From the IMG/VR virus record IMGVR_UViG_3300024255_001563, positions 71,459-135,458 of that record: DNA of 64,000 nucleotides; one strand, written 5' to 3'. The DNA is from a virus. Each line of letters begins with the position of its first letter. The first letter of the stretch is position 1. The notes under the pieces were generated by a model. The model did not search any database, had not been told where the DNA came from, and was given only the letters and a program-made list of their open reading frames with translations. Shown here in pieces: positions 15,978-19,501 of the stretch. The position numbers and the translations under genes are program-made.

Positions 15978-17027
15978 CTAAAATATCATACTGTAAATCA
16001 TTGATTTATTGTTACTTACTATTTCGTCACGTCTATCAAAACTATTTACAAAATATAATCCAGTGTCGCCAAATTGTGGAACGTTTGTATATAACTTTAA
16101 TCCTGCAGAACTATCATCCGGAGCACTCGGTTCTAATAATCCATCGTCGTCGCCCGGTGTTGCATTTATTTGTAATACATCGTTAATTCTTACTGTACCT
16201 GTTCCAGGCGCTGAAAGAGTAAGATCGCTATTACTAACAGTTGATTCTATTTTAGTATCTAAAATTCGTATTCCTTGAATTTCAGCTCTATTTTCATAAA
16301 ATTCACTTACAACAACATCGTCAATACCTATTTGTACAACACTCGGATTTCCAGTATCTTCTCTGTCAATAGTTTCAACAAATGTTTTTGTTATTGTACC
16401 TTCTTCAATTCTATCTTGGAACACCCCTGCAAAATAAGAATTAACATAATCAACAATTGATTTAGTATTCGGTATGTTATCTGGATCGATAACACCATCA
16501 GAATTAGAACCACCTGTTAAATCAACTGTACCTGTTGCGATATCACTATATGTAAAAACATTATTTTCATAATCAGTAGTACCTGTGACAGTAATTACAC
16601 CAGTACCGTTGCTTATTAAATATAAGTCACTTCCGCCTGTATTAATATGATTTGTTTGTAGTCCTTTAAGTGTTCCACTACCTCCGTCGGCAATATAAAG
16701 CCTAAATGCACCATCAGTTCCTCCTGGAACTACATTTGCAATATTTTCATCAAATACAAAAAATGTATCTGCATTTGTTCCTCTATCTATTCTAATACCT
16801 GCAGAATCAAGTGTAATACCTGCGCCAGTCTCTCCGCTGTTTACAATAATTATATTGTCTTTTACAGTCATATTTTCAGACTGTACAGTAGTTGCGTTAC
16901 CTTGTACAATAAGGTCGCCTGTTACTCTTACAACACCATTTTCATTACCAGTGTTTAATACAATAACACCACCTTCTTGTGTTTCTATAGTATAGTCACC
17001 ATATGGTATTTTTAGAAATTTTGACAT
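15978..17027 (-). CDS. Fibre-like structural protein, 349 aa
   Basis: VTGDLIVQGNATTVQSENMTVKDNII..N...AGIRIDRG motif, also seen in 61784-63745. Confidence 0.75.
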   Translation of the reverse strand: MSKFLKIPYGDYTIETQEGGVIVLNTGNENGVVRVTGDLIVQGNATTVQSENMTVKDNIIIVNSGETGAGITLDSAGIRIDRGTNADTFFVFDENIANVVPGGTDGAFRLYIADGGSGTLKGLQTNHINTGGSDLYLISNGTGVITVTGTTDYENNVFTYSDIATGTVDLTGGSNSDGVIDPDNIPNTKSIVDYVNSYFAGVFQDRIEEGTITKTFVETIDREDTGNPSVVQIGIDDVVVSEFYENRAEIQGIRILDTKIESTVSNSDLTLSAPGTGTVRINDVLQINATPGDDDGLLEPSAPDDSSAGLKLYTNVPQFGDTGLYFVNSFDRRDEIVSNNKSMIYSMIF

Positions 17028-17389
17028 TATATTGTCCTAAGTAAAATAATATTTTCAGTTGAATCGTGTTCTAGATCCCACTTATAATTGATATTCTTAA
17101 AATCAATCATTGTATCATTCATAATTTTTTTTATAAAAACAAAGCTACATATTTTTAAACAAAGTGCCCTTATCGACATTTCATTTTCTTTTAATTCTTC
17201 AGTTGTTTTTTCGACCAACCTACATATACCAATGTTTCCATTATCGTCTGCAACCTCAAATGTATTTTCAGAAAGTTGTGCTAAGACTTCACCGTGTGGT
17301 GTTGCCTTAGCACTTCCAATCTTTACTGAAACTACTAAGTTTTTTAGATTTTCTAAGAAATCCCAAAAAACATTTATCGGTCGTCCCAT
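17027..17389 (-). CDS. Hypothetical protein, 120 aa, diverged tandem paralogue of 17401-17862
   Basis: MGRP start, C-x-L and L-x-E-x-EM-x-I pattern shared; AAGGA upstream; TAATG overlap with next gene. Confidence 0.7.
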   Translation of the reverse strand: MGRPINVFWDFLENLKNLVVSVKIGSAKATPHGEVLAQLSENTFEVADDNGNIGICRLVEKTTEELKENEMSIRALCLKICSFVFIKKIMNDTMIDFKNINYKWDLEHDSTENIILLRTI

Positions 17390-17400
17390 TAAGTTAGTCC

Positions 17401-17862
17401 TTATGCGTCTTCTGTGAAATCGTCGTCATCGGTTCCAACTAATGTGTTGTCGTCGCCAGCTTCTTCAACTTGTGCTGCACCGTCTGCTACAGATGTACTA
17501 AAGTTCCATGCTACACTTACACCATCATAAGCATTACTACCTGTTGCACTTGGTGCTGACAATGTAGCTTTACGTCCAGAAATTTTACTTACTGTGTATG
17601 TTTCTGCATCGTCCATTTTGAATGAAATAGCCATTTCGCCTTCTGCTAATGCTGCTGGTAGTTTACCAGTTGTTAGCGTACAAGTAAATAAGCCTGGTGT
17701 TTCAATTTCTTCACATACAAATTTCTTTGATGCTTTTTGCTTTACAATGTAACCTTCTTTAACTGCTGTGCCGTTATGAAAATTTACTTTAATTTCGTTG
17801 CCGCCTGCTGTAGGTCCTACGCCTGCTACACCGAATAATCGTTTGTTTAGTGGTCTTCCCAT
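17401..17862 (-). CDS. Probable head-associated/decoration protein, 153 aa
   Basis: Directly downstream of capsid gene, own late promoter, strong AGGAG; function inferred from position only. Confidence 0.65.
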   Translation of the reverse strand: MGRPLNKRLFGVAGVGPTAGGNEIKVNFHNGTAVKEGYIVKQKASKKFVCEEIETPGLFTCTLTTGKLPAALAEGEMAISFKMDDAETYTVSKISGRKATLSAPSATGSNAYDGVSVAWNFSTSVADGAAQVEEAGDDNTLVGTDDDDFTEDA

Positions 17863-17958
17863 TTTTTTTCTCCTATAAAAAGTAGTCCTATGCCCGTTCT
17901 ATGAGCTACGCTGCGGGTACAGCATAAGTCCGCCTTGCGGCACACTATCTGACATATG

Positions 17959-17965
17959 TATTTAT
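17959..17965 (-). promoter_or_regulatory. Late promoter (ATAAATA) for the 153-aa gene
   Basis: 16-bp identity with the site at 14699-14714. Confidence 0.6.
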
Positions 17966-17973
17966 CAAATAAG

Positions 17974-18007
17974 AAAAAAGCCCGACACAGTTAAGTATCG
18001 AGCTTTT
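17974..18007 (-). terminator. Intrinsic terminator closing the candidate ncRNA
   Basis: GCUCGAUAC-UUAACU-GUGUCGGGC-UUUUUU; 9-bp stem with two G-U pairs that only form on the minus strand. Confidence 0.75.
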
Positions 18008-18220
18008 AATAATAAGGGTGATAGGTTGGACTTTGAGAATACCAACAACCTCCTAGTAGCTCTCGCTAAATTCGGAGGAGCCTAGCATCGGATAGTTACT
18101 TCCAAAAACATATCTTTGTATCTCTACAATCATATGCTGCCACTACAGCTACTAGCCAAGTTGTGTCACTACGCAACACCGTTCCTTGCACTATCTAACT
18201 TAGACCGTCGCCTAACTTAT
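17974..18220 (-). ncRNA. Candidate ~245-nt structured noncoding RNA, family not recognised
   Basis: Own sigma70 promoter and terminator, no credible ORF, several stems incl. perfect 9-bp CUAGUAGCU/AGCUACUAG and GAGA tetraloop. Confidence 0.6.
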
Positions 18221-18226
18221 GTAACT

Positions 18227-18254
18227 AATATAACATCATTACAAACAATGTCAA
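18227..18254 (-). promoter_or_regulatory. Sigma70-type promoter TTGACA-16-TATATT with extended -10 TG
   Basis: -35 at 18249-18254, -10 at 18227-18232, A/T tract upstream. Confidence 0.65.
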
Positions 18255-18276
18255 CCACTTTTTTTAAAAAAGTCAT

Positions 18277-18303
18277 AAAAAAAGGCCCCGTAGGGCCTTT
18301 TTT
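18277..18303 (-). terminator. Intrinsic terminator after the major capsid gene (potentially bidirectional)
   Basis: GGCCC-UACG-GGGCC flanked by A6/U7 tracts. Confidence 0.85.
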
Positions 18304-18322
18304 CGTTATTATAAAAATAATA

Positions 18323-19501
18323 TTAGCTAAAGCTTACATTACCATTAGTAATTGCAACGTTAGCTAAGTAATCAGCTGCGTTACCAAGCGATGATGCTGT
18401 GTTGTTTAACTCAACATATCCGTAACGTGTCATGAATGACACTGTTGGTTCGAATGATGTTGGGTCAAGCACAACGCCTGAGCTCATTAGTGGGATGTAT
18501 GGGCAATAGAATGCTGCTGCATCTGATTCACTTGAACCTTTGTAGCCAACTAGTACTGCTGTACCGTCACCTGCATATGTGTCTACATAGACACGCATTG
18601 CGTTATTTAATGTACCAACCATTTTAGTGTTAGTTGGTGCTTCAAATGTACCCTCTGTTGTACGTGCAAATGCGCTTGTAGTAGCACTTTGTAGAATTGT
18701 TAGCGCAAATGGGCTAACGACTGCAAAGTTACCTGCGCCTCTGCGTGTACGCTGAGCGATTAGGTTTGATGCACGGTTGATTTGTACTGCAAGTGCTGCA
18801 TGCTCGTCACCAACAAATGTTGCTGTACCAGACACGCCCGCTTGGTCGTATGTTTCAACTGCTGCACCACTTAGTGTGCGTAAAGAAGCTAATACTTCTT
18901 GATCGATTTCAGCAGTAATCTCTTGTGCTAGAGCAGCCATAATTTCTGCTTCAACATCAATACCATGTTGGGACTGAGCATCTTGAGCTGATTCAAACGT
19001 CCAACGAGCACTCAACTTACGAGTTTTCGCTTCAACAGTTTGCTTCAAGATCTGAATGCTTAGTTGATTACCAGCTGCACCTTCAAGAGCTGCTGTACTG
19101 TTTGCTGCACCAGGGTTTGCTTCATCACCTGAATATGATGTTGCAATTTTGAATGGGCTTAGAGCCTCTTCACCTGCTGTTGCACCGTTGGCGCCCGCAT
19201 TCACAGTGTCGCTATAACGAACACGTAGAGTGTGGATTTGACCAACTGGACCAGTCATAGGCTGAACACCTACGATTTCATTAGCAATGACTGTTGGCAT
19301 TACACGTCTGATCACTGGTAGGATCACACGATTTAGAGTTGCTACGTTACCGGCAGAAGTAGCGCCTGCAGTGGCTGTCTCTGACAAATACTTACGTGTA
19401 TTTTCCAAAGTTGCGGCCATTACAGATTTCTTGTTGCCATTTAGGCCTTCAAGAAGTGCTGTCTTCGTATCCTGCCAGCGACTTTCTAGTAGTTCTGACA
19501 T
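18323..19501 (-). CDS. gp23: Major capsid protein, T4 gp23 family, 392 aa
   Basis: RRVMP..IA.EIVGVQPMTGPVGQI, VEAKTRKLSARWT.E.AQD, AFYCPYIPL, FMTRYG motifs. Confidence 0.95.
   Translation of the reverse strand: MSELLESRWQDTKTALLEGLNGNKKSVMAATLENTRKYLSETATAGATSAGNVATLNRVILPVIRRVMPTVIANEIVGVQPMTGPVGQIHTLRVRYSDTVNAGANGATAGEEALSPFKIATSYSGDEANPGAANSTAALEGAAGNQLSIQILKQTVEAKTRKLSARWTFESAQDAQSQHGIDVEAEIMAALAQEITAEIDQEVLASLRTLSGAAVETYDQAGVSGTATFVGDEHAALAVQINRASNLIAQRTRRGAGNFAVVSPFALTILQSATTSAFARTTEGTFEAPTNTKMVGTLNNAMRVYVDTYAGDGTAVLVGYKGSSESDAAAFYCPYIPLMSSGVVLDPTSFEPTVSFMTRYGYVELNNTASSLGNAADYLANVAITNGNVSFS

Follow-up and report, generated by a model that had tools for sequence, protein, structure and literature searches.

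The 64,000-nt stretch of DNA analyzed here (the window; positions 71,459 to 135,458 of the IMG/VR record IMGVR_UViG_3300024255_001563) contains, between the major capsid gene and the next gene on the minus strand, an RNA that is almost certainly of the manA type. On balance we favor the view that this RNA is a separate transcript of about 247 bases, which self-assembles via three loop contacts and acts in trans as a binding platform. From the sequence alone, the initial annotation of the region had proposed a structured, non-coding RNA that forms a unit apart from the late genes around it, bounded by a promoter motif and a terminator of its own. This much stands; the family, however, which it did not recognize, can be identified, and the alternative folds at which it hinted are not supported. 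It had missed the three loop-loop contacts, which, as read from the sequences, would be the best indication of how the RNA works.

The virus record comprises 200,843 nt with 35.7% GC, and the sequencing runs that contain the stretch are mostly marine. Its portal, protease and capsid genes all lie on the minus strand (PHROG matches). The upstream neighbor of the RNA is the gene for a gp23-like major capsid protein of 392 aa (18323-19501, minus strand; phrog_138, E 8e-100), which is 67-71% identical to its counterparts in jumbo phages including Sinorhizobium phage Phosso and Vibrio phage 2.275.O (71%), Serratia phage BF and Cronobacter phage GAP32 (69%), and PA5oct. This gene is followed by an intrinsic terminator with a 12-bp hairpin and a U run (18277-18304, minus strand), and relatives show similar hairpins 3' of the capsid stop. 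Downstream of the RNA, a separate unit begins with GATAAATA, a T4-late-like promoter motif (17959-17966, minus strand), followed by a freshwater-2 RNA (17860-17944, minus strand; RF02980, 66.9 bits at a cut-off of 49.9) as leader of a 153-aa gene without PHROG match. All five window copies of GATAAATA lie at most about 100 nt upstream of gene starts, the copy number itself being at chance level, and 50 of 53 relatives have ATAAATA ahead of the downstream gene. Freshwater-2 reaches its cut-off in 10 of 20 related loci, and our literature search found no paper on it. A 120-aa ORF further on (17027-17389, minus strand), also without PHROG match, begins with MGRP like the preceding 153-aa gene and is possibly its diverged tandem paralog. 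The slot between capsid terminator and late motif appears to be exchangeable, since a relative in a contig of run X7 carries a different insert there, with 420 other letters replacing the 299-nt cassette (window 17971-18271). In five of 20 loci a glutamine riboswitch separates the manA-type RNA from the capsid terminator (L001, 3734-3781; L017; L033; L007; L048), followed by a short ORF in L001 and L017.

The initial annotation did not recognize the RNA family. In an E-value scan, however, 18015-18215 (minus strand) matches the whole RF01745 model (positions 1-192) with 42.5 bits and an E-value of 1.7e-9, comprising the same order of helices P1-P9 and the 5'-3' closing helix. This score is below the gathering cut-off of 55.2, and Rfam at gathering thresholds misses the RNA and reports only freshwater-2. 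Homologs above the cut-off were found in 4 of 20 loci of one set and 7 of 20 of another, among them L131 of the close group (58.0) and SAR11 phage Mosig (64.0), and the scores of relatives form a continuum from 34.7 to 79.9. Since homologs pass the cut-off while scores grade continuously down to 34.7, we regard the RNA as part of a divergent manA-type subfamily. Two defining tests gave the opposite answer, namely the score and the position in a 5' UTR, as the RNA has its own terminator and the next gene its own late motif and leader; consequently, we class it as a manA variant and not as a member. Further likenesses to manA are the GACG in L1, a GUNGU in L5 against ACY in L7, a GNRA loop L6, GGUA at the start of L9, the occurrence in T4-like marine phages and a promoter directly ahead, as in P-SSM2, whose manA RNA was located by a whole-record search. 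In contrast, the core reads UAGUGCAAGGAA instead of GAGUGACUGAA, P6 is longer, and the carrier is related to GAP32/BF/PA5oct-type jumbo phages and not to cyanophages. In agreement with the initial annotation the RNA is not a tRNA, as ARAGORN and Rfam gave no tRNA or tmRNA gene in the window or the whole genome. The 29 Rfam matches with E-values up to 10 include neither known ribozymes nor ROOL, GOLLD or OLE, and BLASTN against cultured phages gave chance matches only, of the size of terminators.

To describe the fold, the window RNA was aligned with 37 homologs of at least 57% identity (38 sequences), the 67 more distant subgroup members being set aside. As a single sequence the RNA folds with a z-score of -3.3, with none of 200 shuffles equally stable, and RNAalifold recovers the manA topology de novo, with double changes in 30 of its 46 pairs. 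Under the manA fold with two loop contacts, 95.7% of 2038 cells are paired, compared with 81.0% in shuffled and 29-46% in slid controls, and double changes occur in 35 of 54 pairs. Because related sequences can beat shuffles without any structure, this comparison relies mainly on the slid control and on the counts of pair types.

On the minus strand, the RNA begins with the P1 hairpin (18200-18215), whose C-GACG-G loop (L1, 18209-18206) is a predicted two-fold self-kissing loop. It is followed by a core (18157-18196) made up of UAGUGCAAGGAA, P2 (18188-18185 paired with 18160-18157), the P3 hairpin and AACUUG; its columns are invariant in the 38 sequences, partly by construction, as many homologs were retrieved with this very pattern. 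The P5 hairpin (18139-18149) exposes the loop UAGU (18145-18142), P6 (18107-18138) carries a GNRA loop (GAGA) and double changes in seven of its eight pairs, and the P7 hairpin (18088-18105) exposes ACUA (18096-18093), the complement of the P5 loop. P8 (18049-18078) ends in the apical loop GAGA (18064-18061), which is complementary to the loop UCUC of P9 (18038-18035); P9 and the 3' strand of the closing helix (18020-18046) are 100% paired in all 38 sequences. All stems listed in the initial annotation are present, and five local ones show compensatory changes. The hint at alternative folds, which it drew from mutually exclusive stems, is not borne out among the homologs: CUAGUAGCU/AGCUACUAG is complete in only 5 of 38 sequences (61% of cells), AGGUUG/CAACCU in 11 and GAUAGU/ACUAUC in 24, the latter two without any double change. 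The manA helix GAUAG/CUAUC, which competes with the last of these, is intact in every one of the 38 sequences.

Two of the three contacts join different hairpins. For L5-L7, 94.1% of cells are paired and one pair changes from A-U to G-C in five sequences; with p 0.40 the partner-swap test was not significant, and the contact is conserved rather than covarying. It agrees with the manA consensus, although equating it with the 'pseudoknot?' drawn for manA by Weinberg in 2010 (PMC2864571) is our own reading of that consensus. For L8-L9, 92.6% of cells are paired, three of four pairs show double changes, and the loops change in concert (AUGA/UCAU, AGGA/UCCU, CUGA/UCAG, GAGA/UCUC, CAGA/UCUG, GUGG/UCAC), cognate partners being distinguished from swapped ones with p about 1e-4 over 10 types on several branches. 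Counted in 100 of 105 sequences, and without a control, at least three Watson-Crick pairs are found in 91 and at least four in 53. One branch (L039, L154 and L181; 3 of 38) lacks the L8-L9 match while keeping the remaining fold and represents a natural control for assembly. According to the main text of a recent preprint (10.64898/2026.07.01.735769), manA forms decamers and a 60-mer from pentamers joined by intermolecular L5-L7' and L8-L9' contacts, as seen by cryo-EM after refolding at about 3 mg/mL in 10 mM MgCl2. The window RNA possesses both contacts, including the L8-L9 complementarity of the cage-forming manA_A0F1 type, if loop numbers are matched via the Rfam helix order; however, it is known from its sequence, manA_A0F1 from cryo-EM, with models deposited as PDB 24QD and 24QE.

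The third contact would join L1 to its own copy in another molecule. P1 is covered in 112 sequences (the window RNA and 111 of 113 homologs), and every one of them has a self-complementary L1 centre: CG in 45, AU in 42, GC in 14 and UA in 11, which are all four self-complementary dinucleotides and no other. The long L1 loops contain UAAUUA, UUAUAA or UAGCUA, and a 6-nt palindrome is present in 11 of 13 distinct long loops versus 15% in shuffles, compared with 0 of 40 L8 and 5 of 34 L9 loops. On a tree of 103 sequences built without P1, the five L1 loop classes switch 15 times, and P1 may have been exchanged as a module among homologs; the register of L1 was chosen after viewing the data, and five loop classes are a small number of independent cases. 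The published seed, as far as available, also holds exceptions with non-palindromic loops (UCAC and long loops), and a kiss of two base pairs is a weak contact. Nevertheless, adjacent bases are unable to pair within one chain, and thus the L1 centre points to selection for RNA-RNA assembly; PMC12286853 applies the same argument to OLE and GOLLD. GACG tetraloops are described as making loop-loop contacts in retroviral RNA (PMC5874298, PMC516450), and a title cited in these reviews refers to a kissing complex with only two G-C pairs. The likeness to the GACG kiss of murine leukaemia virus is an analogy of motifs, not homology. Since decamers and icosahedral shells require two-fold contacts, L1-L1' is the predicted hinge between rings. 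The main text of the preprint mentions no palindrome, GACG, L1-L1 or covariation, while its supplement may cover the contact between pentamers; likewise, our search of the manA literature (Weinberg 2010, S-CREM1, CaCoFold, Rfam 14 and the preprint) met with manA only as a cis-regulatory RNA and with neither an L1 self-kiss nor a stand-alone manA gene, either of which supplements could contain. The self-complementary L1 centre of manA-type RNA would accordingly be an addition of the present analysis.

The following mechanism can be envisioned. The host housekeeping polymerase would transcribe the RNA of roughly 247 nt from its own promoter. The RNA would then fold, and L5-L7' and L8-L9' between neighbors would close five-membered rings, as suggested by the cryo-EM of manA, while the two-fold L1-L1' contact proposed here would join such rings into decamers or larger shells. 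Such a closed particle, made of RNA only, would work in trans: it would offer a stable platform with many binding sites rather than switch a gene. Most speculatively, it might display many copies of the invariant core (UAGUGCAAGGAA and AACUUG) and titrate a host protein while the infection proceeds, serving as decoy or scaffold. We consider it likely that an RNA oligomer forms in the cell, while the decoy or scaffold role is a possibility that we hold with some doubt. More tentative still is the idea that marine jumbo phages devote a gene to a shell that consists of RNA only and assembles itself. Pentamers closed by L5-L7' and L8-L9' would be hinged at the palindromic L1 loop into decamers or a 60-mer, and the L8/L9 code, which changes fast, would render assembly specific to each lineage; if so, these phages would build a protein-free compartment or a multivalent decoy early in infection.

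Alternatively, the RNA might work as a stand-alone monomer, with L5-L7 and L8-L9 as pseudoknots inside one molecule that give it a compact fold for binding a protein or ligand; the cages would then result from the high concentration in vitro. The covariation fits pairing within or between molecules alike, a 'pseudoknot?' was drawn for manA in 2010, and the cage data described in the preprint come from concentrated, refolded RNA. However, the preprint resolves both contacts as intermolecular, and for the self-complementary L1 centre there is no intramolecular reading. We regard the monomer as unlikely, though as the most probable of the rivals to the self-assembling RNA.

Whether assembled or not, the RNA is very likely made as its own transcript. 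The sigma70-type promoter motif recognized in the initial annotation (18227-18254, minus strand) is present: TTGACA (18254-18249), a 16-nt spacer and TATATT (18232-18227) with an extended TG, predicting a +1 near 18220. With 11 of 12 positions it ties for the best of 19 window matches, where 18.8 are expected by chance. As the raw number of matches is only at chance level, its support rests on conservation: the strict pattern TTGAC..TANNNT precedes 36 of 37 close homologs versus 0.4% in shuffles, and in 35 of those 36 it lies 34-36 nt ahead of the motif core. It also resembles other promoters in the same genome. At the other end, an intrinsic terminator (17972-18007, minus strand; 18007-17976 in the terminator scan) lies 14 nt past the manA motif without overlap, with a pairing probability of 1.0 in the full transcript, which yields a predicted length of about 247 nt. 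Both this terminator and that of the capsid gene lie where they were first reported, and the scan gave 11 terminator-like sites versus 3.4 expected. Among the close homologs 25 of 37 have a terminator after the RNA, among the distant ones 32 of 66, versus 2.6% in shuffles. These terminators lie 11-25 nt past the motif, never overlap it, are unrelated in sequence and have pairing probabilities of 0.86-1.0 in 21 of 21 folded transcripts. The remaining 12 close and 34 distant homologs lack one, and many of the distant ones directly precede a gene. Since the next gene carries its own late-promoter motif, the RNA is likely a free-standing RNA gene and not a leader switch. The sequence evidence thus supports a unit that stands apart from the late genes beside it, with a terminator and a promoter motif of host type.

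It is against this arrangement that the original proposal for manA, a cis-regulatory riboswitch candidate (PMC2864571), has to be weighed; the main text of the preprint also calls manA cis-regulatory. Our search of the literature, PMC2864571 included, met with no named ligand. Applied to the window, a ligand would alter the fold of a riboswitch or attenuator and control readthrough into the downstream late gene. The invariant core does resemble aptamers, the RNA runs straight into a gene in P-SSM2 and in Mosig, each with a promoter motif 5' of it, and, as in many other distant homologs, without terminator; moreover, the glutamine riboswitches mentioned above are nearby in 5 of 20 loci. However, the terminators stand clear of the motif, form with high probability and share no sequence, and the alternative pairings are not conserved. 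In addition, the downstream gene, seen in 53 loci, lacks the RNA in 34 of them, and no pathway is common to the downstream neighbors. We therefore judge a cis-acting switch improbable for the window RNA and retain the reading as a separate transcript.

A further possibility is that the RNA also arises from readthrough of the capsid gene and is packaged in the phage head or assists in its assembly. Of 24 close homologs with at least 1 kb of upstream sequence, 18 follow the capsid gene, metatranscriptome contigs run from the end of that gene into the RNA, and the RNA occurs in two 'viral metagenome' RNA libraries. Among the listed runs, 9 of 24 are recorded as RNA and contain part of the stretch. 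In contigs from eight runs, near-identical pieces span most of the RNA in X1, X2, X3, X4, X5 and X6, while that of X8 holds only its 3' part and that of X7 none of it. The X5 contig measures 240 nt (18010-18241), close to the predicted size, but this library may be DNA. The longer pieces extend upstream past the promoter, and no transcript start or end can be called from them. A contig is no proof of a transcript, and of the two viral libraries one may be DNA. Furthermore, the promoter is of host type and not a late motif, the slot is empty of the RNA in most relatives (present in 25 of the best 80 capsid loci), and other phages carry it elsewhere, beside gp32-like genes, tRNAs or tmRNA. A link to the capsid is hence quite improbable.

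These figures derive from two scans, in which the best 80 of 598 capsid loci came from 5 of 64 parts and 120 pattern loci from 11 of 64 parts (about 710 estimated in all). Together, the 200 loci gave 142 matches, 113 of them distinct and 104 full-length. With one copy per genome, as in the virus itself, no repeats or mobility gene seen alongside, and no ribozyme family among the Rfam matches, a ribozyme or selfish RNA cassette is very improbable, despite the patchy presence, the invariant core and the compact multi-junction fold. Least of all does a short peptide gene explain the region, a reading which is largely refuted: the 26-codon minus-strand ORF of the initial annotation exists and 27 of 38 sequences retain AUG at its start, but the other 11 do not, the triplet falls in stem P6, the frame yields 2 to 36 residues, often 5, and an 83-aa plus-strand ORF has no PHROG match.

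Among known systems, ROOL, GOLLD and OLE (as described in PMC12286853) are likewise orphan RNAs of phages or bacteria, in many cases encoded close to tRNAs. They assemble into RNA-only oligomers via kissing loops, some of them palindromic loops that pair with their own copies, as covariation shows; yet they are much longer, and their sequence and fold are unrelated to the window RNA. manA itself, a riboswitch candidate since 2010, is still an orphan; the 2026 preprint, which reports RNA-only cages in vitro, leaves unsaid in its main text whether nature selects for them. The promoter-RNA-terminator unit argues against a leader switch, and an L1 centre limited to four self-complementary dinucleotides argues for a selected RNA-RNA contact. 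The subfamily supplies a defined natural transcript of 247 nt with three contacts open to swap-and-rescue mutants, and in SAR11 phage Mosig, a cultured carrier of a homolog, the question of cages in cells becomes addressable.

Mosig (EXVC030M, MT647606.1; L201, 2345-2552) carries its manA RNA (64 bits) unannotated in the record, with a promoter motif in front and rubrerythrin and ssDNA-binding genes after it. The manA model gave no match in three large relative contigs, which are 49-60% complete, so that absence is unproven there. In some loci without terminator, other non-coding stretches follow the RNA, some of them common to several loci (L038 after 4202, L093 after 1685, L175, L140, L154, L188, L144, L121, L134 and L241); these are possibly undescribed RNA modules, and four terminator-less loci gave no more Rfam matches at E 0.01 except a weak freshwater-2. 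Other homologs, in keeping with a stand-alone unit, are joined to tRNA-Gly, lie near tRNA clusters or stand behind a tmRNA (L024 at 3999, L104 at 1687, L131, L151, and L145 at 1137-1468), the adjoining tmRNA being of the permuted, alphaproteobacterial type. A genome scan gave 43 pattern matches, four of which the profile supports as convincing homologs; these four come from assembled-bin genomes and may lie on viral contigs. Homologs were seen in Marinimicrobia and Gammaproteobacteria bins (L239, L246 and L241), and in a Marinifilum bin (L216, 1333-1562, minus strand) an enlarged manA-like RNA is followed by a tRNA-like sequence.
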